Assembly (NCBI GenBank): GCA_000934665.2
Contig: JYFJ02001690.1
Span: 1-64,000, forward strand
Source of the DNA: Catajapyx aquilonaris
Taxonomy: Eukaryota
Length of the DNA stretch: 64,000 bases
Direction of reading: 5' to 3'
Below, piece by piece: positions 3,037-60,599 of this stretch (within the stretch, counting starts at the first letter, position 1; every line of letters begins with the position of its first letter). Below the pieces are notes generated by a model, which saw nothing but the letters and a program-made list of their open reading frames with translations, had not been told where the DNA came from and made no database searches. The translations under genes were made by a program, and so were the position numbers.

Positions 3037-5433
3037 TCAGGTCCTATGAGATATCTCAGAAAAGCCTGAGTGGTTCGTGTCCTTGGCATGCTGCCGAGCC
3101 TCTGCTTCTCCCCGTAGAAGAGCTCCACATTCGCCGCAACGAAGCGAAAAGTTGCGCAGATCAGTATATTCTTGTGCTTCACGGGCCTCTCTGGCAAGCT
3201 CACGAGCTTGGGTCATGACTTCCATGTCACTGGTGCTAAACCTTGTTTGATTCCAGTTGTCACCAGGCCCTTCCAAAGTCAGGTACAGTGGATCGTAATG
3301 AATCCCATCATATAGCAGCATAATTCTCTCATCATAGCCTTGGCTCTCACCAAAGCAATTAGTGAAGCCATGTTGTGTATCTACCACAACAATTTCCAAT
3401 CCCAAGTAGCAAGAGAGAACAGCCAGCTCAATCGCACCACCCCAAGCCTCATCAGTAGCAATCCAGTGGACATACTGTCGTGGTGACTGACCAAGTACCG
3501 CTTCAGAGTATGTCACCGGGTCAGCAGAAATGATTGCGGCAACTTTCTTGCGCATCTCACGAACATGTTCTACCTCTAAAGTTCCTGCAACAACAAAAAC
3601 TGTTGTTTTGAAGGTACAAATATACGTAGTACAACACTCACCTTGCGCAGCATAACAGACACTGGAGAACAGGCAGGAGTTGTCAGCAGGAACCACTTTT
3701 CTGATGAGCACGCCATGTTGGTGGTGTCCGTCTGCTTCCATATTGCATGACCCTTGAGAACTGGATGCCATATCATTTGACAAATCCCCTTGTTCTGTCC
3801 TCTCTTTGATGATAATGGTGTCACCAGACCTGATTCCACGGGATGTCATCAGTGTGCTCTCTTCACTCATATTTAGTGGACGAGGGGGAAATCCAATCAA
3901 CACCAATAACTGTGGTGCGGGGATGCCTAAAACATGAATAAGTTGTTAGACGTTGAAATAAAGTGCCCTTTTGCAGAATCTTGCTTAGGAAAAAGAGAGG
4001 CCAGATCGTCCTCCACAGGAGCAGGTAGCAGAGATTTATTGATTTATTGACAGTGCTTATGGGGGTTGTGTAGGTGGAAGCTTCCTCAAAGGAAGAATGG
4101 GACAAAAATAATTGCCCTTTCTTGCTCCGGAAGCTCTGATTTCTCAGTCTCCCACAAAGGTGTTTAATGAATAGAGTTTCCTTTCGGGTAAAATTAATTA
4201 TGACATCAATAAAGTTCAACGCCTTTCTTGCTAGCTTCTAATCCAATAAGTTTAGCAAAAGAATACATATATAGCTTCCAAAAATCTCCATGCCAGTATT
4301 TCTGGCCTATAAAATCAGGAGAAGCCTTAGAAGTCTGCAAGGAAGCACTACCACTTCAGTTTTTAGCAGATATGGGAGAATTATCAGACAAATCCTGGGA
4401 CAGATGGACTCTCCACTAGTATGACTTGCCCTTGCTGATGCATACATAATAATTCATACCCCGTTATCAGCCTATCGGCTCTTTAGGGAGGAGGTTTTTG
4501 TTTTGCCTGGAACTCTTTGCTTCCATTTTACTGCGCTTTTTGGGATAGGATAGGGACGGAAGGAAGCGGCTGTGGCCTATTAATTACGGAAGCAACTCCG
4601 GAATTCTCCTGGAAGGACCGTGGGAAACCACAGAAAACCACGGTCAGAGTTGCCGGCCCCGGGATTCGAACCCAGGACCTCCCGATTAGCAGTCGGACTC
4701 CTTATCCACTATGCCAACCTGCTTCGGTCTTGCTGATGCATACACAGCCACTGGTATTATAATGTCCAAGATATATAGGACTTTAAAATATTGCAAATCA
4801 TATAATATTTAAAGAATTATGTATAATGGCAGTCCCATGTCTTTGTGTCGAGTGCTTGTCAATTATATCCAGGCACCTTATCCACTTAGAGAGGGCAGGT
4901 CCAAGTAGTGATTTTTACACGAACACTTTTATCACTAAGTAGTGTATCTAGTACTCCCTCGGCTCTGGTTTTTAGTACATGTGAAAGGAATTCATGTCTG
5001 GATAGCTGCACCTCTATTCTTGATTCGGAGGGAAGGGAGAGCATTTGGCTAAGTGAATTAGGCCGCCTTGGAAATGGGGAGGAAGTGGAAGGCAGGAAGG
5101 TGGCAGTATGGCAGCCGAATTTTCCCTGCATGCCTGAGCTCTAAGTATCAACAATAACTAAGCTTATCAAGCAGTATATTCACTAACATATGTTAAAAAT
5201 TTGGTCCCCTCCCCCTCCACTCCCAAGGTCCAAATCATGTGATAGTAAAATGTTCCTGCCACATTACTATAGTTAAGCAATTTAAAATACCCCAAATAAT
5301 TACACTTACCTGTCAAGGCGGCCAGCTTGGCCTTCAAATCGCCAATAGTAGCATCAGAATGAAGTCCATGCAGCGGAGTCAGGCCATCTTTGGTTTTAAC
5401 CCGGATAGCAAGCTGTGTTCGAGCTTCAGCCAT
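3037..5433 (-). CDS. YOD1: Ubiquitin thioesterase OTU1/YOD1 (UBX-like, OTU and C2H2 zinc-finger domains), about 318 aa, 3 exons
   Basis: Exons 5433-5310, 3926-3642 and 3584-3037 join in frame across GT-AG introns (957 nt). Motifs: IGFPPRPL (UBL end), VPADNSCLFSS (catalytic Cys), WGGAIEL, LLYDGIHYDPL (catalytic His), and the zinc finger CGECG...ARQHAKDTNH. Confidence 0.95.
4447..4728 (-). mobile_element. tRNA-derived SINE, family A, in YOD1 intron 1
   Basis: Pol III A box (TGGCATAGTGG) and B box (GGTTCGAATCC). 16-bp TSD CTTGCTGATGCATACA at 4431-4446 and 4729-4744. Homologous to 14388-14617, 59839-60067 and 27030-27178. Confidence 0.9.
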
Positions 5434-9000: not shown

Positions 9001-12000
9001 AGGGGGTGTCCCCGGGCCGGGATCGAACCCGGGACCTTAACATCCATGGGCGCGAACGTTACCGTTGCGCCACTTCGCCTCCCCTCGTGCAGTCAATGGA
9101 ATAATAAGCATTAATACCGTATTACCTCACTTAAAGCGGCATGCCGGTGTAGTCGAGGTCGACCAGTTTTTAGAAATGCATGATCTGGTGGCTATACTGG
9201 CATGCTGGTCTAAGCGAGGTGTGCCGGTGTAATGTGAGGTTTTCTTAAGGTCAGCATTATCACTATCTCTCTGAAAATTATTATTGTAAAATGAAATGAA
9301 TGTATTACACCAAGTTCTACTGTGTGGAAACAACCCAGAACACTTCTGTTGCCTGACACATCCCATAAGACCGTTCGTTAAGTTCAAATTTCGCTGCAAC
9401 ATTTTCAATTAAAAGTGCAAGGCTGCAAGAAGGGAAGCATACCTATCAGAATATTTCATAAGTTTGGTTTGGATTTTATTATCTGAGTAATGAGCCTTCT
9501 CAGGCAAATTGATCCCACTACACAAAGTGATTCTCTGATTGCCAACGCTATCTGCGACCAGCGAGCTATTGAGCAAAACGAAGGACTGAAGGAATTTGCC
9601 TGGGTCCTTTGTAATGTTTAGGGGGGTTCCCCTCTCAGAGCAGGCTGAATATGGGATTGGTCACACACTATGCCCTGTGCAACAGATATGAACTTTCATA
9701 TTCTCACAGCCCTGTACTCGCACAGTTTTCACTGTAACAGTCTTTTAGTACAGTACCAGATGAATTCCCCAAAAAATTGGCAAGGATCAAAATAATGGAA
9801 ATCTACCTTGGTTATTGCGGCATGCCGGCCTCCCCTGGGTTATACTGGCATGCTGGTCGACCTCGTTTTTTTTACTGGCATGCCGCTTTAACACTTAACC
9901 ACCAACGTGTATCTGCCATACATTGGCTACAACGTGGGGTCTTGAAGGACCCCACACAGTTTTAATTTTTAAAATAATTTGACTTAATAGCACTAAAGCC
10001 ATTCTTCCCCGCTAAATTTGGCTTGTATTCTCATTTGTATGTGTAAAAAAATCGATCTCTTGTGACCATTAGTTGAGTCATAAGGGACTTGAGACTCCGT
10101 TATCGCAGCTTCGTAGCCTTCCAGCTCGACGCCGTAAGTAATGGCTTATAACGTAAACATTCCCAGCTGCAGGTGCCCCAGGTGGAAAGCAAGATTTTAG
10201 TTCCGGGTAATATTTATTCTTGTATTTATTGCTGGATAACATCATTCACACTTTATAAAATACAATTTGCTGTGATGCGCTGTGATGTGTTCTCTAAAAA
10301 GTTATGTACATTGGCTACGACGTGGAGTATATCTGGACCCCAGCAGGGACGCTTAGCAGCATTAAAGTACCAGTAACTCTGCAAAGATTTTTTGCACTGA
10401 TGCCAAAGTTTTTCATTGGATCGAAGAACGTATGTCTGAGGAATATAGGCCTGCCATTTTTCATTTCATACCAAATTTATTAATTGCGATGGTATTAGCT
10501 ACATTGTGGGGTCCAAAAAGACTCCATGTTGGTGGTTAAGGGTTAAGTGAGGTAATACGGTAATCAATAATTGTTAGTAGATGTAAGACAGTAAGACAAG
10601 CTGTTTCAGGCCACATATTGGAATGTGCAGTAAACTCACAGCTACATATTTTTTCAGATATTTCTGCTCTTCTTCCTTGTGCTGTACCTGTCAAGCTATG
10701 CCCTTCTATGTGCATTTCGTTATATTGACAAAGATGACCATCGTGATGAAGATGAAGACCTTGTGTACCGGATTAGGTATATTTTGAATTAATCACCTTC
10801 AATTATATGCTGAGATATGTGTCTATTGATCCTTTTGTATCCCAAAGTGTGTGGCTCTGTGCCTTCTCCTTTGCGGTAGCTGTAGGAGCAGCCCTGCTTC
10901 TGCCAATTTCAATTGTGGCAAATGAAGTCCTACTTTTATACCCTGCCAGCTATTATGTGAAATGGCTGAACACTTCTCTGATTCAAGGTGAGCTGCACAT
11001 TTGTTTGCCATTGGTGAAATGGAATTCACACAAGGAAGAATGTAATTAAATTAATCTTGCTTTCTTTGCAGGTCTGTGGAACCTCATCTTTTTGTTTTCC
11101 AATGGCGCGCTCTTCATCATGTTGCCTTTTACCTACCTGTTTACGGAGTCAGAAGGCTTCCTTGGTGTTCGAAAGGTGAAGTTTAATTATATGAAGCAAT
11201 GAATGACTCCTAAGGATTATAAGGGTATTCACAAGGTCAGGTGTTACAGCTCGTTACAGTCTGTGTTCTCACAGTTAACAAGGTGAAAACAAATAAATAT
11301 TCAATGTAAAATTGACATTGGGATTTTAAAAAGTCTGATGAAGGCAGAGCCTGAGCGATTTATATAGTTTAATGGGCTTAGTTAATTTGTTCAAAAATGT
11401 TTACATCGATTTTAAAATTCAGTACAAACTAGCCATTTTCCTGTTCTGTGTTAAAGTCCAGTTCATGTGCCACCAAGTATTAGCCTTGACAGCTGTTGGC
11501 ACCCAATGGCATGCATTTTCCAGGACTGGAGGGTTGGATAGCTAAGTGAGCAAGGGTAAGAACATATCACGGGGTGAGAATTACAAGGTTGTAACTACAT
11601 TGCAGTTACGACCTTGTAATTCTCACCCCACGATATGCCCCAGCCAATGCTGTGTGCATCTTAACTCAAGGTGTAATGATGTAATACTCTATTTTGTCAC
11701 CTTTTAAACCCACCACAATATTAGACTGTAATGTACTGACATCGTCAAGTGTGACCTAGAAATTGCTATATGTCATTTCGATGTTCATCAAGTGTATTGT
11801 GTAGATCAGCGTTTCACAACCTTTTTACCCTTGCGGGACCCTTGAAATAATATTCATGTCTCAGGGAACCCCTACATAAAAATTAATGTATTATCGGTCT
11901 ATCAAGTAATGACTCAAAAATACATTCATGTCTGATTAGCTTCACATCTGATTCATCACTGTTTCTCGCGGGACCCCTGGTGATTGCTCGTGGAACCCAG

Positions 12001-13392
12001 GTTGAGAAATGCTGGTTTAGATTGTCTAAGTAAGGGTCCAAATCTGCTTCAAATTTTCTGTGTGTGCAATGATGCTTTTGTTTCAACATTATAAACATTA
12101 CATGACTTACAGTAAAAACTGACATTCTATAACAACTCTAGAATCAACCCACATATATTACTCATCTTGGTCAAATTCATTTCAGGGTGTGATGAGTCGT
12201 GCTTATGAAGCTGGTGCAGTTCTGGCACTGATTGGGGTAGTGCTGCTTGGTATTGCATACATCTTGGTCGCTCTATTTGATGAGGAGAGGGCACAACTGG
12301 TGGCCTTTTTTGACGTCTGGAATTTTTATCTCCCATTTCTTTATTCATGTGTGGCCTTTGTTGGAGTCCTACTTTTACTCTGTGAGTGAGAGATTTACAT
12401 CTTGACAAAAATGAAGGCAGTTTTTAAGTTGATATTTCTCCTTTCAGTATGCACTCCCCTTGGGTTTGCACGTCTCTTTACTGTTGTTGGGGGACTTATT
12501 GAGGCTAAACCTCAGTTTTTACTGCGTCATCTGATCGATGACAGCTACAAAGCCAAATTGGAAGAGGAAAGTCTGGCCCGTCGACTGAAAGAAGTGACAG
12601 AAGAAGAATCTAGGAAGCAACGCCGACACCAGCTGAGTCGAAGAATGTCTCTTGACTCCCCTCCATCAAGGTAAAAGCTGCTATTGACCACTGCTGACAC
12701 CATGATAACTGTATTTAATTTCAGCTCAATTCCATCACCATTGCTGAATCGTCCGATGTCAGTGGAAGATATTACATGCTCCACAACTGCATCCAAACTG
12801 TGTGACATCCGCATGAATGGAATCCAAAAGAGAACTGAAACAACCCCCTCCAGACTACTTGAACGCTTACAAAATGCTGAGTCTGAAAGGAAGAAGCTAG
12901 GTGAGATGACTGTGATAAATACTATATAGTGCAATTCCTGTTACTGTTCAAATTGCTATTTTAAGTTCTCCCAGATGAAAAGACACCTTGGTAGAGAGAG
13001 TTGTATATAAGTCCTCTTTCTCAGACTCTGATAGGAGACGGTGGACTGTCTGCAGTCACCAATTTTCAGGCAGTTGGAGTGCCTTACATCTACTTTTTCT
13101 GCAGGCATTACGTAGTTTTGTACCCTCTCTCTGGATTCACTTTCTATCACTTGTGAATCTTTGTGCAGTGTTATTGAACTACTGGATGCAGAGTGAACAA
13201 ATGATGGAAGTCCCAAATGTGTTTTACACTGGTATTTGTTGCCCTACTTGGCGACCTTGAAACCACTGGAAGTATTGTACTCAACTTTTCATACAGGGTG
13301 TTTTGTAATAACACGGAGAGGGGGAACTCCTGGGAACCCAAAGGTCATGTTGTATACAGGTGTCATTTAGTCTCTGAAGCTCCATTACTGAC

Positions 13393-13449
<57 letters not shown>

Positions 13450-16400
13450 GATACCCCGTGATAAGCCTCCTTGGGCTTTTTAGGGGATCATCTTTTTAAG
13501 TGACCGACTTTAATCATTGCCTTTGATGCGATGGATTTTAATAGTGGGGGGAAACGGGAGAACCCCGAGAAAACCCACGCGAACACTGAGAGAACCCATC
13601 AAAACTCTATCCACATAAACATCCTCTTTCCGATCCGGGGATCGAACTCTGGACCTTAGAGGTGGAAGGCTGTGGCGCTAACCACTCGGCCACCATGTCG
13701 CCCCCATTACTGACATAATTGTCTTTAATCAAAGAGTGCATTATACCATCTCCTATCTCCCATGTTCTATGTAGCGGATACAACTGTGACACTTCCATCG
13801 ACTTGGCCACTGCCTGCTACACCTAATCCTAATGGGATCACAGTTTAAATTAAAACTTCACTGTGACACCTCAAATACAGGGTGATCCAACTTTATCGCC
13901 CCAACAGTTATTGTAAAAATTGCGCAAGCTGCTACTTTTTAAGCAGCTACTTGCTAAGAGTTACTTTCTCGAGTATCTGGAATAGCACCTGCTGATATTA
14001 GGTCCAATGCCCATGTACCAATATTATTAATGACCTATTTATTGACACAACCGGGTCTGTCCTGTTCGATGGATTAGCCCTCTGATTGGCAGCTAGTGAC
14101 CTCATCTGAATCCCTCCATGGACAACCCTTTTTTCCCTCATTAATTGCTACATGGGCATTGGACCTAATATCAGTAGGTGCTATTCCAGATACTCGACAA
14201 AGTAACTCTTAGCAAGTAGCTGCTTAAAAAGTAGCAGCTTGCGCGATTTTTACAATAACTGTTGGGGCGATAAAGTTGGATCACCCTGTATAAATGAAAA
14301 GGGCAAGGTGACTTGCAGGGATTGTATACAAGTCGCAAGATTTTATACCTTCCAATTACAACTCATTATCTCGGTAACAAGGCTGCACCGAAGCAGGTTG
14401 GCATGGTGGATAAGGCGTCTGACTGCTAATCGGGAGGTCCTGGGTTCGAATCCCGGGGCCGGCAACCCTGACCGTGGTTTTCTGTGGTTTTCCACGGTCT
14501 TTCTAGGATAATTCAGGGGTCGTTTCCGTATAATAGGCCACAGCCGCTTCCTTCCTTCCCTATCCTTGGAAGTTGAAAGGCAATGCTGGGCCAACCTCCC
14601 TAATATCAATTAATTCAGTAACAAGGCTGCAGAGGTGAAATGATGTCTTTATGAAGTGATCCTCTAGTCCCCAGTTTACCCTGGAAGTTTGTTGTGTTAT
14701 GGAACACACTACATATTAAGGGGGCGATCAAGAGAATTTGTATCTTCTTCGAGTTCCAACTCTGGCCGAAAGAGGAGACACTCGATGCCACCCTCCCTAC
14801 ATAAAAGAAGGGTTGCATTTGCGGTTGACCATTCCCTCTATGCACAATAAAAACTGTGGAAATTAGGGTTCTCCCAACTGCTAGTAGTACTCAAATCAGT
14901 CAAATTTTGGCAAAATTATTATTTGCCGGAAAGGTATAGCTAAACATAAAAATCAGCTTCATTGGTCAGGAGCACCAATTTTTTGCACATTTTTGGGTGC
15001 TTGTTATGAGATCACTTAAAGGGACACGCCACTCAAAATACAAGTTGGCCCCCAAAAATTGGGCAAAAAATCCTGATTCCGAATGTGCAATTGGTTTTTT
15101 TCTCCGCCCAACGGTAACACGGAAAATCACGGAAAATCATATATCTACACACGTCGTCTGCTAAGAAGGGCGATACAGCACCATCCCGCGGCAAACCGGA
15201 GAAGTATAACGCGCACAGTAAACACCTGCCGCGCCAGGCGTGCCTGGTCTAGTTCCGCCCGGTTCCACTCTGGTGGCGTCGCCACCTGTGCCCACCGCCC
15301 CGCGCGCGGTTTTCGAACGACACACTTCCAGCTTTCACACTGGCCTTACCGTTCGTCTCTAAGAAAAACTGCTTATACCCTCGGAATCAGGATTTTTTGC
15401 CCGATTTTTAGAACCCAACTTGTATTTTGAGTGGCGTGTCCCTTTAACATTTCGCAACGGTGTAAATTACTCCTGCATGCAAGTGGTTTTTAAAAATACT
15501 ATATTAATAATATGTAAAAAGTACCACAAACATGTGTAAGACAGATGTCAGTTACACTTACACAGAATTTTTTTTGGTTCTGCTATTGTTAGTTAGCGAG
15601 AATTTTACTTCCAAATTCTCTTTATCCCCCCCTTAATTTGTACATTCCTGAAATATTAGAAGCTAATAATTTGATACCTTGTGATAGAGAGGATTTTTAA
15701 CCACCCCCAACTAGCCAGGAGCTAGAACAATATTGTATATTTATACTTCATTAACCAAGAAAAATACTTCACATGCCAGCTGACAGTGAGCAAAGCTTTT
15801 GTTTATGTAGCCTTGATTTGATGCTTCCATGTCTTCTTTCCCCAGAAAAGTTGCAGCAATCTTCAACTCTGCATCGAACTCTGACCTATCCTCTTGCGAT
15901 GCTGGGTCTCCTCTTCATGACAGCTCTAGCAGTGCTCCTGGTCCTTCACAATACACTGCAGCTCCTTGTTGGAATTAAAGCACTACCTCTGAAGCAAGTC
16001 CAGGTACATCTACAGACACCATCAATGTTGCCAATTTCTTTTGTGCAAGCACAATCTGTTTCCCTTCTCTCACACGCTCTCGGCAAGCTCAGAAGCGGCT
16101 GCGTCCGATGAGTGTTTCTTTCCACTCCAGTCTCGAGGTGTACATGCATGATTCTTGTGAAAGCAAAGTACAATCATCCTAATACTTATTTCCCTATTTC
16201 AGCAATTTTCGTTGGGCCTGTCTTCACTGTCCAGCCTGGGACCACCTGGAGCTGCCATTCAGGTGGTGCTCATCGTGTACCTTTTGGCCACATCGTTGGT
16301 GGGACTTTACTCCCTTCCCTTTGTGCGCCATCTTCGTCCAAAGAAGCATCAAACACCTGTGGCCCAACTGGTGCTCAACTGTGCTCTCGTACTCATTCTC

Positions 16401-19400
16401 TCATGTGCACTCCCTCTACTAGCTAGAATACTTGGTATGTTGTAATTGTTAATGTCCTGTACAAAGGGTCCACAACCTTTGTTGACTGCAGTTCTCTTAA
16501 CAAGAGATCCTAATTTACATATTCATAGAATTTTATCAAGAGGTGGTATTGGCCAGAGGAAATTTTAAAAAGAATGTGCATGTTTGGATCAGTATATGTT
16601 TCACCTGATGACCCTGCTACCCACCAGTGGGTTGTGGTCAGGACTAGGACAATCACTTGCCGAGACATTGATTCATCATTCACCCACATTCATTAAGCAG
16701 TGTCATGAATAAATTTATACGGAGAAAATCAATGCAAGAAGAGTAAACTCGAGACTTTATGCTGGTCTTGCCCATCTAGGGCAAGAACTACTTCTGGCCC
16801 ATTGTGAAGCTACCAGACTTGATTGTGAGGGAGGAAGGGTATGGGTTGTGTAGGCGTAGTTGGGATGTTGCTTATGGTAAGCATATGCAACACCCCCACC
16901 CTCAACTCAGCATGTCAGTTCAGCTGCACATTTGGCCAGCAGTAGTAGCTTACAGTCAACTACTATATCTACTTTGATTCCATCAAAGTGGCATTAATTT
17001 TTCAGGTGCATTGTTTACACATTGTACCCAGAATTTGCTTGGGAACAAGCTCATTGCACATTTAAGTTAACTTCCCTTCTAATGACAAAATTGTCGTCAA
17101 TGTTCAGTCACATAATTAGATAACTTATCAACTAAAATCCAAACTAACAATGATGATGATAATAATGGATACCCCGTGATGGGCCTCTTAGGGGATAATC
17201 TTTTATTCAACCGTCTTTAATCATTTCCTTTGGTGTGATGGATTTTGATTGTGGGAGGAACCGGGAGAACCCCGAGAAAATCCATGCGAACACGGAGAGA
17301 ACCCATCGAAACTCTATCCACATAAGTATCCTCCATCCGACCCGGGGATCGAACTCGGGACCTTAAAGGTGGAAGGCTGCGACGCTAACCACTCCGCCAC
17401 CGTGTCGCCCACTAAAATCCAAATTGTCACAGCCTTGTAGATCTGTCTGAGATGCCAAGCTTGTGTTTTTTACTGGCTCCTCCGTCAAAAAAGATAATTA
17501 AGTAAGAGAAAGGCTCAACCCTAATGAGTTATGGGAAAATATTTGATAAATTCTTATGACAATTTGGTGTAATCTGAGATTTTCCCTCTGCATTGTTATG
17601 ACTGGGCAGAAGTACGAGGAATACTTACCATTTTGACTTTGCAGAGGTTGATCAGGAAATATTGACTTGGATTGATGGAATGGAATCCCTAATCTGGTGT
17701 TGTAACCTTTGTTTACATCTCATTAAGAGTTGCCAGACAGGAATGTGACGTACTGGTGGCACTGCGAGCTGATGCGGAAAAAGAGTGAATCGAACCGATT
17801 TATTAGTTGCTTATTCATCGCTTCAATTTGCTCTTTTGCCACAGCAGCTCTTTTGCCATAGCAGCTCTTGGTGCCACCAGTACTGGTACTTCACCATTCC
17901 TGTCCAGCACTGAACAGCAGTGTGTTCTTGACCCAATACGCAGGGTGTTCCAACAAGTCTGGTACACTTGTTTTGTTGATGACGATGTCTAAAATTTCAG
18001 TAGTGCCAAGTTAGCACATTACACTTATGATATATGAGAATCACGTGAGCTTATCAGTTAAACACATACCAAATACAATATGTGCTTATTAATCAAACTA
18101 GAAATTTTGGAACAGTGAGCCCCAACTTACAATGCCAGTTTTGGATCGAGTCACAGTATAACTTTGGGGGTTGACTGGAAAGAAGCTTATTTATGTTTTT
18201 TGATCAGAAAACTTGTGTGAAAAATCACTTACATTCATGTAAATGTACCAAATATTTGTAGATGTTGATGGTGTCAGTGAGCTGCTCTAGTTACTTTCTA
18301 GTTATTCAGTCTGTACCCGCGGAATATAGTTATAACTGACTTATGTATATCAATTTGTGACACATTGTAGTGTTTATGGCATAAAGTCCTTCTGTCCCAT
18401 CATACGTTACTTTGAGACTCTAGACAACTCGATCATCTGTCACGTTAAAAGGATTTGTTTTAGGGGGGCCGCCCCGACTTAGCCTTACAGCCCAACAGTG
18501 AAAAAGAAATTACCCAGATCACAAGGGTATCAAAAATAAACCCATAATAGTGGCATTGCTCTAATAAGGTCCATATTTTGCCATTGAAAGGAATGAAAGA
18601 TGGCGAAAAGGATGTGACTATAGTTCCCGGCTGGCTAACTTGTCAGTCCGCCCACCCAACACTCCGAGCCAATGGCTTGCCTGGATTGGGATGGGGGAAT
18701 GGAGGAGTCGAGGTGAAGTGGGGATGTGTGACATTAACCAAGATATGCCCAGTGTCCCCTACAGGGGACACCTGCCCAGTTGTTACATTTTAATTTTTTT
18801 GCGCAGGTTCTTCTGCTGCTAAAGAGCTGGCAGTAGTGATGGGGGCTTCAGTAGAGTCCCAGCTAACTATACAAGTTCAAACCGGCTCAATATTGCTTCA
18901 GATTTTTAAGATACAGGTGTTTGAATTTTAACGCAGGAAATAATGGCTGCACCTCCACGTTCCGAAGATTATTAGTAATTAATTCTCGAATGTTGATTAG
19001 CATTATGAGTAATTTTTTGTTTGTAATACTTAGAAAACTTATGAATGATGATGTCGATGTGGAAATATAGGAATATTTTTTACTTTCCTTGTCTGAGAGT
19101 AGTGTTGAAATCTGGGGAACGCAAGAGGCAAATGCACCCACATTTGGACTAGTAAAGTATGTGTGTGGATTTTGTACGCTTTGTTGAACTGTATTTTAAT
19201 GAATCTATACAATGAAAATGAGATTACATGGCAATTGGTTAACATGGCAACAATCCTTGATTGTTGATTGTTACTCAGTCACAACCCCTTCTTTTCACTG
19301 CCTATTTCCGTGGTAATGCAATGGACAACAATGAATCATTGGTGATATTATGAAACTATGGATGTTGCTGAATGTCACTGTTGCCATGGTAATGTAATCA

Positions 19401-27279: not shown

Positions 27280-27600
27280 AGTTACTGGATCTACTGGGGG
27301 GTGGCACACCACCAGCAGTTTTCTGTATATTTTTACTACTTCATTGTCCGGTGCAAGGAAAGGACATTGGGAAAGGATATGGATTTTTTGGGGAGGGAAC
27401 ATGGGTGCAAGTGCAATGTCCGTAAATGGGTCTTGTGGTGTTCCCCAGGAGGTTTAGGTTGCCGGACACCTCCTTGGTGCAGGTTAGAGACCCTTCTGAC
27501 GCAGGTGAAAGGAAAACTCCCCAGGCGGGGATCGAACCTGGGGCCTTTTTCACTCAGCAAGCCGAGACGTTACCATCTCGGCCATCTACAACCCCCCCCC
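27280..27600 (-). mobile_element. tRNA-derived SINE, family C
   Basis: Head TGGCCGAGATGGTAACGTCTCGGC...GGTTCGATCCC. Homologous to 46090-46421. Confidence 0.88.
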
Positions 27601-28076
27601 GAATTGTGCCTACTATTCGAATGAAAGAAATCTCAGCAAGGTGAGGATCCGCCTTTACTTTGCCACTGATGTCTTCTAGTTACGACCTCTTTTGTTTGTT
27701 GATCTTTAAGTTGTTAACTGTCAAATCAACTTCAACTTTGGTGTCCCCCTATAACTCCAATGTTACGATTCATAATATTATTCTAAAGTCCAGATAATCT
27801 TAATGGAGATTTTTTATCACATTTTGTTTATTAGTAATCGCGTTTTTCTTGTTGCCGGAGATGTTACTAGGCACAGTTGCTGCTTCATTTTTAACTATTT
27901 ATATGAAGCACAGACTACATGTATGCAGTTAACAGCTCTAATTAGCATGCGAATAATTAAACGCCGCTTGCTGCCGTATAATGAAGATCTTTGAAATAGG
28001 AAGTGGGCGGTTGAGCTGCTGTTGCAGTGACAGTACATGAAGTGAAGCAGGCATTATGGTAGAATGGTTGCCTTAC

Positions 28077-28915
28077 CTGGTAGAAGGAAGGCTGCGTGTC
28101 TTCTATTCCTACCCTTGAGGGCCCTGGCAGTGCCTGTCGGTTCTGCCGTAGGAGATGGGCTTGTGCCAGTTACTGTAGCCGTACCTGTACCTGTTGCAGT
28201 GCCTGTCATCATTCCTGTCTGTAAAAGCCATTAATATGGCCATTAATATGGCAGGAATATGCGGTGCCAAATTATTCATTGCATAATTTGCCGATTTTAA
28301 TCTGGTGTTAATGGAAGATATTCATTCTCATTATATGTGGTCTATGCTGAACAAGTTCCGTTGTATGGCTGGCTGATTAAATTTGTTCTCGTGTTACTGC
28401 CAACCCTGTAAGCAGCTCTTATTGCCTTTAATTTTCTTACGTAACGCCATATTGTATAACTCTAGTGACATTTCAAATTATGCAAACTACCCATAGAACA
28501 GCATGTTTATACTTTGGTCAAATTACTTACCGAAAAAAATGCGTCTAGCAGAAGATTCATTAGGAAGACTCCGAAACTGAGAAAAGCCAGGGCGGTCAGG
28601 GCAAGGTCAAACAGACTTCCGAAGCTCATGCCCTTGTCACCTTTGCCTTTTCCTCCTCCACCACCATATCCGCTTCCTGCAGCGCTGACATAGTCACGAC
28701 CCGACAGCCTGCATGGGCATCCACCACTTATTACAGGATTGATCTAAGAAAGCCGGTATAGCTGACCTGAGATGACTGGAGGTAGCTTCTGCCAGCTGGT
28801 AGCCACCCACATGATGGTTGCGGTCGAACCAATGACTTCCATCCAACTGGTGGTTACCGCCATCAACAGCCAACAATAGACAAAAGATGAACCAGAGCTG
28901 CCTTCTAAGACTCAT
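28077..28915 (-). CDS. Uncharacterised signal-peptide plus single-TM protein (Gly-rich, then TM, then Thr/Gly-rich with a furin-like RNRR); terminal exon not resolved
   Basis: Exons 28915-28767, 28708-28531 and 28218-28077 are phase-consistent with GT-AG introns. Protein: MSLRRQLWFIFCLLLAVDG...RLSGRDYVSAAGSGYGGGGGKGKGDKGMSFGSLFDLALTALAFLSFGVFLMNLLLDAFFSTGMMTGTATGTGTATV...GRNRRHAAFLLP. A TATAAAAG lies at 29119-29112. Confidence 0.75.
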
Positions 28916-29675
28916 ATTGTCGCTGAAATGCAGAACCAGAATCACCAGGGCGGACCTTTTGCATGAGGGCACCTGCCCATGACCACTTCCTCTCTTTTTC
29001 TCTCATCCGTGCAAATCCGGAAGAGATGACAAGCCAGATGACCGCCAGCAGCAGGGTTGGAGGATGATGGCAATACGTCTCCCTACCCCCACCCTAGTCT
29101 TCTCTTCCCAACTTTTATATGCTCATCATTCTGAAGGGGGCATCGATTCTCACACCGGAGCAGATGGTCATATTCTCACCACATCTCCCCCCTCAGCTCA
29201 CCCATCCTCCCACCATCTCTCACCTCCAACGCCCAGATTTCTTTCCACCCCCAAAACGCCTTTTGGGGAACTTTTAGGGGGAGGGGGGGAGGGAGCGATA
29301 ATGACCCTTCTTCCCTCCCCTCCTGCCCCCTTCCTCCCCCACAACAAGTTGCATCGTTTCTGTCGACAGCGCAGATTCTCCCAGCTTGGAGGCACTGGCC
29401 TGCCCACTGTCTTTATCCAATTAGGATTCATGAAACATTATACATCAGGGGCCTTAAATTATGGTGTAACTTCATATTAGTGTGTATCGATCACTGGTGT
29501 CTCACCCCTCAGGTCAGCACATGCCTAGTGACGCAGAATTCACACGCGCCTGATGGTCCAGCTTTGGATGCAAACACACTGGTATATCCCACGCAAGGAT
29601 GAGACATCGTTGTATAAAGGTATATTAAGCTTCAAAACACCCATTTATTCATATTTGTGACATATGCATAACCAG

Positions 29676-29964
29676 CTATTCCACACCCATGCGGGTGTGA
29701 CAGCATATGTATCTGTCCAAGTTTCTCTGGTAGCAGCAGTTGTTATTGTCGCAGTTAATAAAATCTCCGCACTGAAAGACAACAAGATGGCACACATGAC
29801 CTTATTACGAGTATTGTAGCAACATTCTGGGGACTTACTCTTCCACCGAGCATCATGGGTTTTTCCATGTTGGCGCGCATTAGAATGAAGAATATCGTTG
29901 CCAATATCATGGCTCCCAGTAGTTTGGCCCGGTGGGATACGACATCGCTTACGTGGTACATCAT
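29676..29964 (-). CDS. Small secreted cysteine-rich peptide precursor, 73 aa, 2 exons (mature C-X5-C-X4-CC-X9-CC)
   Basis: Exon 1 29964-29839 (donor AGA|GTAAGT), a 67-nt intron, acceptor GTCTTTCAG|, exon 2 29771-29676. Protein: MMYHVSDVVSHRAKLLGAMILATIFFILMRANMEKPMMLGGR|CGDFINCDNNNCCYQRNLDRYICCHTRMGVE*. AATAAA at 29649-29644. Confidence 0.8.
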
Positions 29965-30124
29965 GCTGATGCCGAGTCAAAGGGATCCTGCTGCTGGGTT
30001 GAAATAGCTCGGGTCAACAACTCACTGAATGGCACGGGCACTGACCTACCTTGTGACAAGAACGGCTGTGGTGGGGTCTGTTGTCGTGTATGTGATGGCA
30101 GCTGTGGACCAGTCGGGCTAAAGA

Positions 30125-30157
30125 GAATGAGTGGTCCTCCAAGCTCCAGTTTATATA
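30125..30157 (-). promoter_or_regulatory. TATA box plus initiator core promoter of the Cys-rich peptide gene
   Basis: Minus-strand TATATAAA starts at 30157. TCATTC (Inr consensus TCAKTY) has its +1 A at 30128, 29 nt downstream, which is canonical spacing. Confidence 0.7.
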
Positions 30158-31197
30158 GGTGGTGTTTGTTGTGGCAAATAGGAGATATCATAAAATCAGC
30201 GGGACACAATGAGCCATTATTGTATTTTTCGGGGCATTATTTACATGCCATGAGGAACATCTAAGAGACAGATAAGCGTCACAACGTGCAATGACGCAAG
30301 TGTTGAGCAGAATTTTAGCAAAAGTTGTCTTCTGTAAGAGAAAAACATGGTACTTATGGTGCATCGAAGCACGTCAGTTTAGCAAACTGCGTGTGAAGCA
30401 AATTAATGTGTAGATGTAACGCTCAATTGTTAGAGTGGCATAATGTTAACTAAAACTAATACGAAATAAATGATTTTGCAATATCCGAACACAAGTTTAA
30501 ATGGGGAAATACACTACAATGGGTATCCATAATTGTGGACATTATCATCAATTCTGGTTTAATGAAAAATAAATCATAATCTACCATTGTTTGAATAATT
30601 AAAATTAAAATTAAAATTTTCCGACGTTCCTAGAGCTCCTCTCGTGGTGGTTTTAAGGTGGAAATGAAGCTAGAGTCACTTAATGAGAATTTTATGAAAA
30701 AAACATACGTTACGCAGTTTTGTGTCCTCTTATCAATGGTGCAAAGAAAAATACACGTCACCGTGCAAATTAGCGAACTAGAGGGCTCAGAAGTTCGCGA
30801 TTTAACATGGGCCCTTATGGCAGAATTTTCAATAGTCCACAAAAAAATCATAAGTAAATGAGAATTTTAAAATTTAATGTGGAACATGTCGGGAACTATA
30901 TACTGATCGCAACCGCAAAAAGAAAAACCTACCTCACCGTGCTCTTTCAATTTGTATTGCTGAAAAACGATCCGAAAATGATCCAGTGACGTCACATTGC
31001 TCCACTCGAGTGAGGACGTGGCAACACAGCGTTGTTTACGGTAGCGAGATACGGTTGCATATGACCGCGAAATATGAGTGCAAGTTAGTATGATGGTTTT
31101 TACAATGGCTCACACAGGATTTTCGTTTGGCGGGGGTGTTTGTCAGACGTCAGAACCGTTATATTAGTTTATATAGTTATAATTGTAATATAATACT

Positions 31198-31650
31198 ACC
31201 GAAGCAGTAGTGGTGTAGTGGATATGGTGTCCGACTGCTAATCGGGAGGTCCTGGGTTCGAATCCCGGAGGCCGGCGATCCTGACCTTGGTTTTCTGTGG
31301 TTTCCCAAGGTCACTCCAGGAATAATTTCCGGGATCGTACCGTAATGTAGGCCACAGCCGCTTCCCTCCTTTCCCTGTCCTGGAGGAGATGCGGGTCAGT
31401 CTGGGGTTTCTGACCCGCATCTAGGGGGGCCATCTATGGCGAACGGACCCCCCTGGGGCCTGGGGGACTGCACACGACCCCCAACATGAGAGATTGCACA
31501 TGCACCAGTGTCCCCCCTTCCTATCCTTACCTTGTCCCTGCACCAGCTAATGTAAAAATAATAATAACAAAAATAAAGGAACGTGTGATATACCCCCAGT
31601 TGGGGGTGAAAGCACTACCCCAGTTATGTTATGTTATGTTATGTTATTAT
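31198..31650 (+). mobile_element. Chimeric tRNA-derived SINE (family A head, structured insert, family C-like body, (GTTAT)n tail)
   Basis: 18-bp TSD TAATTGTAATATAATACT at 31180-31197 and 31651-31668. 31199-31380 matches family A, and 31460-31550 matches the family C body (CTGGGGGACTGCACA...GAGATTGCACATGCACC). Confidence 0.88.
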
Positions 31651-32626
31651 TAATTGTAATATAATACTCGAATGATTCGAATCCACCCGGCAATGACGTC
31701 ACATACTGCTACGCGATAATTGGCCCGGACCTTTGCTGCGTTGCCGCTTCTATCTGTCACACGCGTACCAACTGAACGTGTTCCAAATCCGACACAAATG
31801 TTACAGGCTCTCCTTTCGGAACTAAACTTTTAAAAATGCCATGACAAATTGGGACCTCGTAATTACAACCGAATAAAATCGATTTCCATCAAAAATAAAA
31901 AATATTAAGCACACCTCCGAATACCATGTTTAAGTTGGCAGTCGTGAAAATTGCGCCTGCGCACAAAAACTTGCAGCCGGTAATAGGCCCATATTAAATC
32001 GAGTTTAAAACGCAGATTCGAATGGAATGCATAGGATTGAACAGCATTTACTGCTGCATCGGTTGCATATGTTTCCCTGATTTTAGCCCTTCTTATTAAC
32101 ATTCCAATTCTAGACTCTCATTTTTTTGATTATCAAGTCGCTTCATTTCCACCTTAAAGTAAAAAAATGGCAAAAGTGCGAATTTCAAATGCGGAATTTC
32201 TGGGAATTTCGCAATACCAGGATCGATAGGACCGGATATGACAAATATTATTTTCATCTGCCATCTGACATTATTATAAACAACTTCCAGTAACAATATG
32301 TAGGCTACTGCGGAGAAAAACGATCCCTGGAACTCATCCATCCTGCATAAGGTCATTAATCTTTTCTGAAATATAAATAACTTTCCTATCAGTAATCCTA
32401 TATGGACGGCGTTATGCAATAATGGGTCAACCCACAAGAATGTCAAAATTGAGTTAAACCCAGGAACATACACCCAAAGGATAGTAGGCCTACTTCATTC
32501 AGTTAAAATCAAGGTGGCAAAATCTGCATACTTCTGCCACAAATGACTGAAAAGTTAACTCACAAATGGTGTGCATGGACGGTATATGCAATGAATTGTC
32601 AACCCACAAAAATGTCAGGCCCTAGA

Positions 32627-40209: not shown

Positions 40210-45038
<4,829 letters not shown>

Positions 45039-46089: not shown

Positions 46090-46421
46090 GGGGAGGTGCG
46101 GTGGCCGAGATGGTAACGTCTCGGCTTGCTGAGTGAAAGGTCCCAGGTTCGATCCCCGCCTGGGAGTTCCCTTTCACCTGCGTCGGGAGGGTCTCTGACC
46201 TGCACCTTGGAGGTGTCTGGCAACCTAACCTCCTGGGGAACAGCACATGACCCCATATCAGACATTGCACTTGCACCCCATGTTCCCTCCCCAAAAATCC
46301 CGATCCTTACCCAGTGTCCTTGTTTCCCTGCACCGGAGTGAAGATAAATAAGAAAATTGATAGAAAAATGGTGGTGTACCCCCCNAGGGTCATCACGGGG
46401 TACAACAACAACAACAACAAC
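46090..46421 (+). mobile_element. tRNA-derived SINE, family C, with (CAA)n tail
   Basis: Head GGGGAGGTGCGGTGGCCGAGATGGTAACG...GGTTCGATCCC. Tail CATCACGGGGTA(CAA)n. Confidence 0.9.
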
Positions 46422-55344: not shown

Positions 55345-55817
55345 ATGGCTCGTGGTATGGATGTCTATGTGGGCAAAGTGAGGGCCTGGAGGATGAATCT
55401 CCAGGAGTGCTACCAGCAGTGGAAGGATAAACCCTGTCAGAGGGCTAGGGAGCGGCAGAATGAAGATTGGGCTCATCTTATCAGGTAAATAGGGTTCTTT
55501 TATTTGGTGCAAATTGAGAACAAAAAAGTGTGTAATGGCGTCTAAACATTTCAGACGTAAGACTCTGATTGAGCTGGTGAGGGCTTCGGCTGCTGTAGCT
55601 GGTATTGAGTTCTCCTATGCTGCGGAGACGGCGTTTGTGTCACCAACTCTACTCAAAATTGGCCTGCCACATCGCAAGATGACATTGCTGTGGTGCCTGA
55701 GTCCTCTGATTGGGCTCTTTTTGACGCCTATTCTGGGGTCTCTCAGTGATGGTTGCCGTTCCAAGTGGGGACGCCGACGGCCCTTCTTGTTGCTGCTGGC
55801 AGTAGGAGTCACATTGG
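55345..55817 (+). CDS. SLC45: SLC45-family proton-associated sugar transporter (lovit/Slc45-2-like), first two coding exons; no further coding exon recognised in the window
   Basis: Exons 55345-55484 and 55555-55817 (70-nt intron, phase 2), with donor G|GTGAGT at 55818. Protein: MARGMDVYVGKVRAWR...DWAHLIRRKTLIELVRASAAVAGIEFSYAAETAFVSPTLLKIG...LSPLIGLFLTPILGSLSDGCRSKWGRRRPF, carrying the SLC45/SUT signature SD.C.S.WGRRRPF. Confidence 0.92.
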
Positions 55818-55962
55818 GTGAGTCTCCCTTGAAGGGTTTTCTGCGTCTTAAGTGCGTGAGTTTGCGAAGGTTGTCTTCTGAATTCTAAAACGTTATTGCT
55901 ATTTCTACTAATTAAACGAAAGTTTGTGCTAAAAATGACAGTGGACTTCAAAATTCCGCGGA

Positions 55963-58900
55963 TTAGGACTGGGTGTCTTCACAAGTTCCACCCTGTTCCT
56001 TGCTCCAATAAGTAATGCGGGTGTGGGCCTTGACCTCGTCGCGTACGTCCGCATTCTGTAAGAACAAAACAAAACACGTTATATCAAATGTGGATTGTCG
56101 AGGATTTTGTCCGGGGTTGGGAAAAGAAGTAGAAAATAAACAAAGAGATTCGGTGCTACATGGGGAAAGACAGTGTACAACTTATTTAGAAGTTAATGAT
56201 CTGTGTAGTGTGTGTATGCTAGATTACCCTGGGTGCGTTGAAAATTATTTTTTAAATTGATAATTAATTTTAGCAGTCAAAATAATGGTGCTTAAAACTA
56301 TGACAGGACAGGTTATTCTGCCAGACCTAGGGTGACTAGTAGAGTCTTCCGAGGAATGAGTGAATAAGACGTTATATTATTGTCGAATTGAGGTCAAGAT
56401 TCACTTTGAGTTCCACAGATCATTAAGTAAAGAAAACAAGCCAGTCAACAATATTTTTGAAGCTTCAAGTTACAGTTATGACAGACAGGTTGCGAATTTC
56501 ATTTTCAATTTTTATGTGGCTTCATTCCCAACTTTTATTTTCTTCCCCGCTGAATTACAGTGTACATTTGTCATGATGGGCTTCCAGGATATTCCATGAA
56601 ATAGAATACATGTACAAACAATAATTTTAAAGGGAACTCCTTTTAAGTAATTTTATGGTAGGCCCTATTGATTGTGTTGAAGTTGATGTAATGAACAAAG
56701 AAAAATAAAATGACCCTGTAGAAAAAGCCGAAATCCATTATCATAATTATGTGAAACTAGAATAGACTGTGCATGAATATTTGTCTACTATGGTAGCTTG
56801 TTCAATCTTATATCGAGTGTGGGATATGAGTAAAAAATTTAGGTTTGATACACAAAAAAAAAAAATATTCTGAATTCCCTAACCCTTAACGCGGGCTTGT
56901 ATTCTTAAATTATTATTTCCGACTCTTTGTCCAACATGCAGCTAATAAGACTGCTGAGTTTTAAAAACCAATTTATTTCACTTTATATCGTCTTCTTTTG
57001 ATTAAACCTGCCACGAATTTGAATAGATTGTTTCGTATCACTGTAGTTGGGGTTGTGTCACGTTATAGCTCTCTGTAGGTGCAATAGCAGTGGCCGCGCA
57101 TTGGCAGATTTCAGGAATAACTGAAGATGAGATTCCAAACAAGAGGTAGAAAAATTCCAATTGAGAAAATCTTGACAGATGCAAATGCTCAAAGTAATAA
57201 AATTCTTACCCTGGACACAATTTGGCGAAGCAAGGGCCCTAGAGACTTGAGATGGACATCCGGAATTTCTCCCATCCATGCTTCGACGAGTAGCCCATTT
57301 AGTTCCTGCGAGGAAAAAGCACTTTTAACTCTCGATTTTGTTAAAAGTAATGTAGCCTAACTTTACTTTTTAAAACCATGATACACCTGCTATGCAGGAG
57401 GACAAACACAAATTCTATTGCTTTATGAAACTATACACGTAAGTCCCATATTAAATTTTTTTTCACTATTTAAAACACGTCTTTACCAATCTCAGCATGC
57501 ACGAAGCTGACAATTATTATACATGGCGTTGGGTATAGTATAACTATAGAGGAAATAAAGAAATATCCTTACATTGCCCCTGAAGCTTGCACTATTATCA
57601 TCAACAAATACGGTTGTTTTAGGATCAAATCCCAAAGTGGTAAAATCTTTGGTGTAGGAACCATCCTCGAAGGTGCAGTGCTCTCGGTGAAAAATATACC
57701 TGCAATGAAGAGTGCCGTTAAACGCTATATTTGGACAAAAAAATCAATGGTTTTTCGGAAGCTCCTGAATCTACAGTTGGTAGCTACTACTGCATATACC
57801 GCCAAGTTCATAAGAGCCGGTCATAATCGCTTCCACATTGGATTAGCACAAGGTTTGTCATTGCTGATTTTGGAATTAGTTCGAACTTCAAATTTGGCCC
57901 CGAAATTTTTGGAAATTAAATATGGTGTATATCAGTTAATAATTTTTCTCGATCAGTAAGTAATTCTTTGGGTAAATGCTTTCATCATGGTTTAAAAAAA
58001 TTATACGTAGAAAAGGTGCAGTAAGAATTCAAATCTATCAGGAAAAGTAAACCCTACGGATTTACTTGTTGGATTAAAATTGAGGCCATTTTTTTAACAT
58101 GGGCCACTTTAAAAACGAATAGTTTAAAACAGGAAAGTGAGAAATTTCCCTTGATGCGGATAACAGCTGGCTTCCGTTCCACCCGGTTCCCTATAATTAT
58201 GACAATAAATATTTGTTAGGCACTTGCTTGATCCTTTTCTTGGTGGGATCTATCTTGTTAACGATAGGGGAAGCATACGTGGCAGTAGCTGCGGTGAACA
58301 CATAAATATCATAGATCCGGGCCATTTGCTTCAGGAATTTCTTTGCCCATGGCCGCAGGTAGGCATCTAGGCCTTCGTGTTCTAATGCGCATATCCACTG
58401 TGCTCCCGGTATATTCTCTTCGTTTGTATATATCAAGGTGGAGTCCTGCAAAATATATAGTGTTAAACAATATTGTTGTGTCGTAACACGATCATTTGAG
58501 TCAGAATGAAAACAACAAAGTCTACTCCAGTGTGATACAACTGATATGCCCTTATAGCAGTTATCGATTTTTTTGGTAATAAGCTGCTCATTATTTTAAG
58601 CAGTTACTTCTATATGTGACCAAAAATATTAGTTGATAAAACTATTTTGAACGGAAGCCCAGGCCCTAAATTGCGATTCGCGCTCGAGAGTTTGTTGTAT
58701 CACAATCAACTAAAAATTATGGAAGAAAGTCAGATTGTATATTGTGAACACCAATACATTTTCCTATTTCCCCTCTTGCCTTAGGGTGAAATGGTGTACC
58801 AATTCGACCTAATATTAGCAGCTAATAGATGGTTCGGACAATTAGGTCAATCTTAGGTGAATCTCCTCCATTGATATAGCGCGAATCCCCACGTCAATTA

Positions 58901-60599
58901 TAAGGAATTTTGAGTGAATCTCGCAAGTTTTTGTCGAAATGTTCAACCCTTCGTAACTACTACATTATTTCGACAGCCTCTAGAATTAACTTACCCAAAG
59001 TAGCAGCTTAATAATTTATTTATTTATTTATTTTCATTACCCCACGGGGGGAGTTATACTACTCCTTAGGGGGGGTGGGTTGCCACCTTTGGAATTTGTT
59101 TTGGAGCGAGTTTAAGAATAATCTTTAATTAGTATGCTCCAAGGGTGGGTGGGAGGGGATGTGCAAAGTGCAAGTGCAATGTCTCTAATCGTCATTTTGT
59201 GAACTCCCCCGGGTGGCTTAGTCTGCCGGAAATTGCCACCCGAAACGAAGCCAGAGATGGCCCAACTCTGCACGAAAGAAGGTGGGAACCCCGGGTGTGG
59301 ATTGAACCCGGGACCTTAACTTCCGTGGGCGCGCGCGTTACCGCGGCGCCACTCCGTCTCCCCTAATAGCAGCTTAATAATAAGCTACTTCATGCAAAGA
59401 AATCCCCAACCATTACGGACTACTCAAATCGTCCAGAATAACAAGACCACATATTAAAGCTGATGCATTCGCTATGGTCCTATAATTTTTATGTATAGTG
59501 TTTCTTTCTTCTCATTGGCTTTTGCTTAACAGCATGCACACCGCCATCGTGAATTGATGGTCTTACTGCAACAATGGGTTAATCCGCATTTTGAAAATGA
59601 ACTCAAACTACAAAAACGCTTCATGTTTTGGCACATGTGCAAAGAGTTTGTTGCAGGTTGAAGATCACAAAAATAAGGAATCAGAGGGGAGTCGCGGTGG
59701 CCGAGACGGTAACGTCTCGGTTTGCTGTGCGGAAGGTCCCGGGTTCGAACCCTGCCCGGGTACTCCCTCTCGCCTGCGTCCGGAGGGTCTCTGACCCGCG
59801 CCTTGGAGGCTTCTGGCAACCTGACCTCCTGGGAGACTTTATTATTGATATTAAGGAGGTTGGCCCATCATTGCCTTTCAACCTCCAAGGATAGGGAAGG
59901 AAGGAAGCGGCTGTGGCCTATTATATGGAAACAACCCCGGAATTATCCTAGGAAGACCGTGGAAAACCACAGAAAACCACGGTCAGGGTTGCCGGCCCCG
60001 GGATTCGAACCCAGGACCTCCCGATTAGCAGGCGGACGCCCTATCCACTATGCCAACCTGCTTCGGTCCTCCTGGGAGACTGCACATGGCCCAACGGTTA
60101 AGACATTGCATCTGCACCTGTGTCTCCTCCCCAGAAATCCCCATCCCCATCCTATATTTTTTCATCCCTGCACGGTGTCTGAAGGAAAATCATAGAAATT
60201 GTATGGAAAATGGTGGTAGTCCACCCCCACCCCCCAAGAGGGTATCTGGCCCTATCACGGGGTAGCGTAAAAAAATAAAAGTAAATGGTATATCTATTTC
60301 TATCATTATGTGGGTTAGCACATTGTTGCAGTAAGCCCTTCAATTGCTAGTTATTGGCTGATTTAAGTCAGGTAATCAACAGGGTTACCAGTGTCATCTC
60401 CGAGGTAAAGAAGGGCTTCAAATACAGTAATCTATAATTAATCTTGATGTAGGCCTACAAATGATGGTTCTACAGATTAAATACTTTTTACTGACGAATC
60501 GCGGGTCAGTGTACTTACGAGATCCAACATGAGCGTGTACTTATGCTTCTTCAAAGAAACGGCAGGATGAACCGTGGGATTTTCCATTACCGGAGCCAT
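55963..60599 (-). CDS. FCP1/SCP (NIF-domain, HAD) CTD small phosphatase-like protein, 204 aa, 5 exons, nested antisense in the SLC45 intron
   Basis: Exons 60599-60519, 58445-58228, 57699-57573, 57305-57210 and 56055-55963 (615 nt). Motifs: YTLMLDL|DSTLIY (DxDxT), LRPWAKKFL, YDIYVFTAATATYASPIVNKIDP, FHREHC...YTKDF, VFVDD, NG..VEAWMG and DVR. Intron 2 needs a phase-2 donor, best met by AA|GCAAGT. Confidence 0.88.
59016..59366 (-). mobile_element. tRNA-derived SINE, family B head and body with a different tail
   Basis: TSD TAGCAGCTTAATAAT at 59001-59015 and 59367-59381. Tail CCCCCTAAGGAG...CCGTGGGTA followed by (AAAT)n. Confidence 0.88.
59686..60280 (+). mobile_element. Family C SINE interrupted by an antisense family A SINE (59839-60067)
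   Basis: The inner element is flanked by TSD CCTCCTGGGAGACT at 59825-59838 and 60068-60081. The outer halves rejoin into a family C sequence. Confidence 0.9.

Follow-up and report, generated by a model that had tools for sequence, protein, structure and literature searches.

On the minus strand of the window (the whole 64-kb stretch of DNA that was analysed, animal DNA of ~42% G+C), a candidate two-exon gene with a full open frame of 73 codons was read from the following features, given here in the 5′ to 3′ order of that strand.

30150–30157, minus strand: TATA box TATATAAA, read from the sequence, with its 5′ T at −29 relative to the putative start site
30125–30130, minus strand: initiator TCATTC, with the putative +1 A at 30128
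29965–30128, minus strand: putative 5′ untranslated region (UTR) of 164 nt, with zero ATG and with an in-frame TGA 12 nt 5′ of the start codon
29839–29964, minus strand: coding part of exon 1, 42 codons, devoid of Cys and ending in GGR
29772–29838, minus strand: intron of 67 nt in phase 0, with a GTAAGT donor (29838–29833), a pyrimidine tract, and a CAG acceptor
29676–29771, minus strand: coding part of exon 2, 31 codons (29771–29679) and a TAG stop codon (29678–29676)
29644–29649, minus strand: AATAAA polyadenylation signal, 26 nt 3′ of the stop codon, with a GT-rich stretch next to it

The original prediction, made from the same letters, had described a TATA box at −29, the TCATTC element, an ATG, an exon end at GGR, the GTAAGT donor, and a 67-nt intron, and all of them were present at the places proposed on the minus strand; the AATAAA, which had been put at about 27 nt past the stop codon, was found at 26 nt. 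The TCATTC hexamer is a match to the arthropod initiator consensus TCAKTY. The start codon ATG (29964) has an A at the −3 position, and the putative 5′ UTR preceding it contains a donor-like AG/GTAGGT (30050–30044, minus strand). The exon 1 product consists, in order, of a charged N-region, a 15-residue hydrophobic core (LLGAMILATIFFILM), and the segment RANMEKPMMLGGR. All six Cys residues are encoded by exon 2, and the first of them coincides exactly with the exon boundary. The framework C-X5-C-X4-CC-X9-CC claimed for this exon was indeed present at 29771–29679 (minus strand), followed by a 7-residue tail, and the putative mature peptide, for which ~3.7 kDa had been estimated, has a computed mass of 3674 Da in the reduced form and 3668 Da with three disulfides. 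Its calculated pI is 5.57 with a net charge of about −1.2. Residues 32–73 of the precursor have a pI of 6.73 and a mass of about 4913.6 Da.

Besides the candidate, the window contains the following recognizable protein-coding features.

3037–3945, minus strand: OTU1/YOD1-type deubiquitinase, a single open reading frame (ORF) with an OTU domain and a C-terminal C2H2 finger
10777–11046, 12123–12386, and 16161–16442, plus strand: exons of an LMBR1-like membrane protein gene (at least three exons)
44613–45038, plus strand: homeobox exon, in which the third helix is recognizable, followed by long poly-Ala runs
55493–55888, plus strand: MFS/sugar-transporter-like exon
58197–58595, minus strand: NIF (CTD-phosphatase-like) exon

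The best relative of the OTU1/YOD1 protein is 45% identical, and insects, Daphnia, chelicerates, molluscs, and vertebrates all fall at 35–45%. In the OTU1 tree, the branch of the protein is very long and falls among the pancrustacean rows (support 92/89), its placement being unsure, and the protein is either a fast-evolving copy or derived from an unsampled host lineage. The host is therefore probably an arthropod-like animal. In the ~23-kb stretch around the candidate (17–40 kb), none of the ORFs of at least 55 codons gave a Pfam match. Nesting of the candidate within the LMBR1-like gene is excluded, the last recognized exon of that gene ending at 16442. A G+C content of 48–50% was found at 38–42 kb (a stretch that includes 40300–40720), a region that may hold the first exon of the homeobox gene or a CpG-rich promoter. 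Copies of a tRNA-derived SINE-like repeat are located at 4651–4722, 14393–14464, and 59990–60061, and also at about 31240–31300, 27430–27620, and 46100–46300; this repeat yields the recurring ORF text ...SKPRRYHLGH... and inflates the counts of NF-kB-like motifs. A search against Rfam gave only three weak tRNA-like matches (30.7–32.5 bits), which come from copies of this repeat and all lie outside the candidate.

Directly downstream of the candidate, on the same strand and beginning ~500 nt away, there is a second gene model of the TATA-plus-signal-peptide type.

28531–29125, minus strand: second unannotated gene model

This model has TATAAAAG near 29120 and an ATG at 28914 with a clear signal-peptide-like start, followed by a 58-nt intron (28766–28709) and then by a Gly-rich exon containing a hydrophobic helix and ending at a GTRAGT donor (28530). 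It gave no Pfam match; its Gly-rich exon was protein-like in the ESM Atlas, where the nearest clusters (0.82–0.85) include uncharacterised arthropod proteins, to be taken as a lead only. The LMBR1-like gene likewise contains a short intron, a GTGAGT...CAG intron of 66 nt (12382–12447). Because the neighbouring models thus have introns of 58 and 66 nt, the 67-nt intron of the candidate is normal for this genome.

The extent to which such an arrangement is expected by chance was estimated with shuffled and reversed sequences. A relaxed-loop C..C..CC..CC pattern occurs once in the 64-kb window, as compared with 0.01 times per window in 100 shuffles. Stop-free stretches of 32 residues that contain at least six Cys residues, on the other hand, number 13 in the window versus 3.1 in the shuffles (40 shuffles), and Cys richness by itself is therefore weak evidence for a gene. 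The whole arrangement was examined with a two-exon finder that needs an ATG, a hydrophobic core, a GTRAGT donor, an intron of 50–500 nt, and a pyrimidine tract plus YAG, followed by a second exon that is open for 20–100 codons. In the real window, the finder produced three models, namely, one formed by an exon pair in the LMBR1-like gene, one by a pair internal to the neighbouring gene, and the candidate, and only the last of the three combines a TATA box, an ATG-free leader, an initiator, an AATAAA within 60 nt past the stop codon, and six Cys residues. An initiator correctly spaced from a TATA box was also found, in the 64-kb window, with the finder model of the candidate only. Two thousand Markov shuffles gave 341 basic models, among which 13 had the AATAAA, 13 had the TATA box, one had at least six Cys residues in its second exon, and none had all three. 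The product of the single-feature shuffle rates is ~7e-7 per window, a value that leaves out the initiator spacing, the perfect donor, and the exon boundary on the first Cys, and that is to be read with the caution that the null model consists of Markov shuffles, from which real genomes differ, and that the scan is large. Moreover, a decoy made by reversing (not complementing) the window gave no basic models. The finder, the 2000 shuffles, and the reversed decoy agree that the two-exon model, which is internally coherent, goes well beyond chance; the signals in the sequence, and how improbable their combination is by chance, are matters of direct observation. A real gene, of a kind of which invertebrate genomes contain many, is far more probable than coincidence.

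Homologues of the candidate were sought in sequence and structure collections. For the exon 2 product, zero candidates were found among 5.8 billion proteins in a word-indexed search (73–2000 aa and 22–72 aa ranges), and HMMER gave no matches at E ≤ 0.001 among 1.84 billion representatives, the protein collections searched lacking the proteome of the host and of any close relative. Comparison with PDB sequences gave only a chance match (E = 4) to the rhinovirus 2A proteinase, and the best score of exon 2 in the ESM Atlas was 0.77, with a recognition value of 1949, below the 2300 reached by 91% of known families. The original prediction had proposed HMM searches against granulin and toxin families, and no match was obtained: hmmscan against Pfam-A with the 41-, 33-, and 31-residue translations gave no families at E ≤ 1 or at E ≤ 10, Granulin and the toxin/defence families included, in a scan limited at its upper end by the HMMER filters, which discard most matches above E ~0.1. 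Within the 64-kb window, tblastn with both exon products and blastn with 28500–31000 returned only the query itself, the latter indicating that the window contains no second copy of the locus.

A single-sequence AlphaFold2 model of exon 2 (mean pLDDT 66.8) predicts a hairpin with strands at residues 12–15 and 20–23, between the two CC pairs. With this low-confidence model, Foldseek found nothing in the PDB at E ≤ 0.001, the best rows being EGF-, BCMA-, and TACI-type hairpins at E 4–10, and VIA-align found nothing at Z ≥ 2 among 48,161 chains. Because the host is absent from the protein collections, the blank homology searches with exon 2 show only the absence of an annotated, detectable relative. 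With no homologue found, exon 2 is so far without a sign of selective constraint, and the labels toxin, antimicrobial, and lineage-specific, which the original prediction had attached to the peptide, are unsupported, though also not refuted.

Codon usage was evaluated with a table built from 687 codons of the recognizable exons in the window, which is a small training set. The candidate has a log-odds score of −0.067 per codon, which 59% of the 185 unselected ORFs of the window equal or exceed; the exons from which the table was built, when scored on it themselves, give 0.10–0.35. The codon usage is thus an absence of support for the candidate and speaks mildly against a gene, and only mildly, because the training set is small and the composition of the peptide is unusual.

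These results can be read in several ways. The promoter, splice sites, and polyadenylation signal may be real while the RNA is non-coding, or belongs to a very young de novo gene, with the frame and the Cys pattern being fortuitous. The zero homologues in the protein collections agree with such a reading, as do a codon usage indistinguishable from that of random ORFs, the commonness of Cys-rich stop-free stretches (13 in the window), and the location in a 23-kb stretch devoid of Pfam-recognizable ORFs and adjoining a homeobox gene. However, the first ATG after the ATG-free 164-nt leader opens a frame that encodes a hydrophobic targeting segment at its start, continues in phase across the intron, and has all six Cys residues in its second exon, a Cys content reached in only 1 of the 341 shuffled models; we therefore regard a non-coding or de novo origin as quite improbable. 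The doubt may also be carried further, to the gene itself: the arrangement could be an after-the-fact coincidence picked from a very large scan, or a dead gene or the end of a mobile element that carries a TATA box and an AATAAA. Very many windows were scanned, and the features were chosen once they had been seen; each signal is frequent alone (AATAAA and TATAAA occur in the window at 0.92 and 0.53 per kb per strand, respectively), and neither the conservation searches nor codon bias lends independent support. Against this stand the joint rate obtained with the shuffled windows, already very low before the initiator spacing, the donor, and the exon boundary are counted, the empty reversed decoy, and the single-copy nature of the region in the window, so that the presence of no gene at all appears unlikely.

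A further alternative concerns the hydrophobic segment of exon 1 and the form of the product. The claim of a signal-like segment is upheld by its 15-residue hydrophobic core, which follows an n-region containing Arg and Lys, but not by a clean cleavage site after it. Such a core has the length of the h-region of a signal peptide and is short for a membrane span; a weak match of exon 1 to the Pfam family TM_ErbB1 (E 0.084) reflects its hydrophobicity only. According to the −3/−1 rule, no clean signal-peptidase site was found within 3–7 residues past the core: at Ala31, the sole Ala-X-Ala-like position, the −3 residue is Met, and the rule is satisfied only within the core or at Gly41, 12 residues beyond. 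Together with the Arg directly after the core and the nearly balanced charges flanking it, these features would suit an uncleaved signal anchor, the product then being a type II single-pass microprotein of 73 residues, of which 43 would form a Cys-rich tail in the lumen or outside the cell. The shortness of the core argues against this topology, and so does the site at the end of exon 1. Exon 1 ends in Arg42, for which the P8 residue is Lys; since a basic residue there fits the rule for monobasic convertase sites, release by a convertase of exactly the peptide encoded by exon 2 is plausible. The membrane-anchored form is an unlikely one in our estimation. Whether the segment is a cleaved signal or a signal anchor, the Cys-rich exon product would face the ER lumen, where three disulfides can form.

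Collectively, the candidate is best explained as a real, unannotated two-exon transcription unit on the minus strand that would encode a secretory-pathway peptide with six Cys residues, to which we assign a probability of roughly 0.55. The TATA/initiator core promoter would give rise to a spliced mRNA of roughly 430 nt, and its first ATG would open the 73-codon frame, in which exon 1 would provide an N-terminal hydrophobic ER-targeting segment and a short spacer ending in Arg, and exon 2 a 31-residue, slightly acidic domain whose six Cys residues would form three disulfides in the ER lumen. The likeliest end product would be a soluble secreted peptide of about 42 residues after release by signal peptidase, or of 31 residues (3668 Da in the oxidised form) after an additional convertase cut at the single Arg42 with its Lys at P8. 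The peptide would presumably fold into a β-hairpin that lies between the two CC pairs and is stapled by disulfides, resembling the ‘mini-granulin’ half-module described below, and may function extracellularly as a ligand or as a binder of the defence or toxin type. We infer these steps, from transcription, splicing, and translation through targeting and processing to fold and activity, from the sequence.

The candidate is probably the precursor of an orphan disulfide-rich secreted peptide of no recognized family. Invertebrates commonly have genes for small disulfide-rich secreted peptides, which are often orphans. If expressed, the candidate would be another such peptide missed by ORF-based annotation, which overlooks the gene because the short intron splits its reading frame. 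Its value is local and lies in the annotation and in offering a candidate for a ligand, a toxin, or a defence peptide; a toxin or granulin-like nature of the peptide is a guess.

Several families with a similar Cys arrangement were compared with the candidate. The Cys order C-C-CC-CC is also that of the penaeidins. Like the candidate, the penaeidin/hyastatin group consists of arthropod signal-peptide precursors with a C-terminal six-Cys, three-disulfide domain, as described in the excerpted text of PMC9409781. According to the same excerpt, however, penaeidins are cationic (pI 9.3–9.8) and have a Pro/Arg-rich domain at the N-terminus as well as a helical Cys-rich domain (PMC9409781), whereas the candidate has a pI of 5.6, no Pro-rich domain, a predicted hairpin, and no Pfam match. 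Penaeidin identity was therefore rejected on charge (pI 5.57 for exon 2 and 6.73 for residues 32–73), domain layout, and profile. The mild acidity of the peptide also argues against a cationic, membrane-active antimicrobial.

A C…C…CC…CC pattern was reportedly noted in STMC6 proteins by Pei and Grishin in 2012. In these proteins, the transmembrane segment and the PPxY motifs come after the Cys domain. The Shisa-like STMC6 proteins (CYYR1, WBP1, VOPP1, and TMEM92) resemble the candidate in being small and in combining a hydrophobic segment with a six-Cys domain, and the excerpted text of PMC11399591 attributes to them a transmembrane segment and several PPxY motifs. The frame of the candidate, in contrast, ends 7 residues past the last CC, its hydrophobic segment precedes the Cys domain, and it contains zero PPxY motifs and gives no Pfam match. 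No hydrophobic exon was found between its stop codon and the TATA box of the next gene. STMC6 identity was rejected, as neither a transmembrane segment nor PPxY follows the Cys domain.

The layout of signal, short pro-region, and disulfide-rich mature part, together with the small size, is also reminiscent of venom and defence prepropeptides such as conotoxins, centipede SLPTX, and knottins. In the excerpts of the literature on ‘C-C-CC-CC’, which comprises papers on venoms, toxins, and other cysteine-rich peptides, the motif is shown inside eight-Cys frameworks, centipede included, and no six-Cys toxin family with a C-C-CC-CC framework was identified in those excerpts.

The resemblance to a half-granulin that had been pointed out in the original prediction proved sound as regards the C-C-CC-CC order and the 24-residue Cys span, but not as regards the Granulin profile, which was unmatched. 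Canonical granulin loops are of 5–6/5/8 residues. Those of the candidate are of 5/4/9 residues, and the II–III loop of four residues instead of the canonical five is unusual; moreover, the Pro/Gly residues usually found around the CC pairs are absent, the gene would comprise a half-module only, and the Pfam Granulin profile (PF00396) gave no match at E ≤ 10. On the side of likeness, the first six Cys residues of a granulin module constitute its N-half, which is encoded by its own exon, as stated in the excerpted text of PMC4527844, and the putative half-module of the candidate similarly occupies exon 2. The same excerpt gives granulin N-halves as 30 codons, a count that includes two residues preceding the first Cys and four following the second CC (PMC4527844); the Cys span is therefore 24 residues, equal to that of the candidate, which thus shares with paragranulin and the granulin N-half, as far as these excerpts describe them, both the order of the six Cys residues and their span. 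Single-residue differences in length between Cys I–II and IV–V are reported there to occur naturally in granulins, and some of the granulin genes described contain no more than one full module (PMC4527844). Furthermore, natural and engineered half-granulins fold alone as a ‘mini-granulin’ with a hairpin at residues 13–23 and I–III, II–V, and IV–VI disulfides, according to the excerpted text of PMC7463432, and the hairpin predicted for the candidate (12–15/20–23), lying between the CC pairs, is comparable to this NMR hairpin (13–23).

The comparison with granulins stands as far as architecture goes. We do not class the candidate as a granulin in view of the absent profile match, the short II–III loop, and the missing residues at the CC pairs. 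That the candidate is a free-standing half-granulin gene, with a single N-type exon behind a signal sequence and its product a natural ‘mini-granulin’ in an arthropod-like animal, strikes us as very doubtful. If true, it would provide a living example of the half-module proposed as the ancestor of the 12-Cys granulin scaffold, used alone in secreted signalling or defence. Such a relationship, if confirmed, would bear on how the granulin hairpin stack arose, and it is the only route by which the candidate would gain wider interest.

The surroundings of the putative promoter show one further feature.

30371–31152, no strand assigned: CRE-like motifs (TGACGT) clustered upstream of the promoter, at 30371, 30755, 30987 (palindromic TGACGTCA), and 31147

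Four TGACGT-type sites, one of them a full palindrome, are thus located in the 1 kb upstream of the promoter. The count of CRE-like motifs there is five hits as compared with 0.36 per kb window-wide, and five were reached in 8 of 630 sliding windows. The cluster gives a weak, post-hoc indication of bZIP/CREB-type control, as in secretory and neuroendocrine genes. CRE-like motifs are locally dense over 30371–31696, and those at 30987 and 31694 are full TGACGTCA palindromes. An immune-type promoter was rejected, as the nearest match to the NF-kB-like motif GGGRNWYYCC is at 32641, ~2.5 kb upstream of the TATA box. Antisense to the leader of the candidate, at 29923–30264 on the plus strand, there is a stop-free frame of 113 codons with nine Cys residues. 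It lacks a start codon close to where it begins, matches nothing in Pfam, and probably arises as a by-product of the leader on the opposite strand, which is CA-rich.
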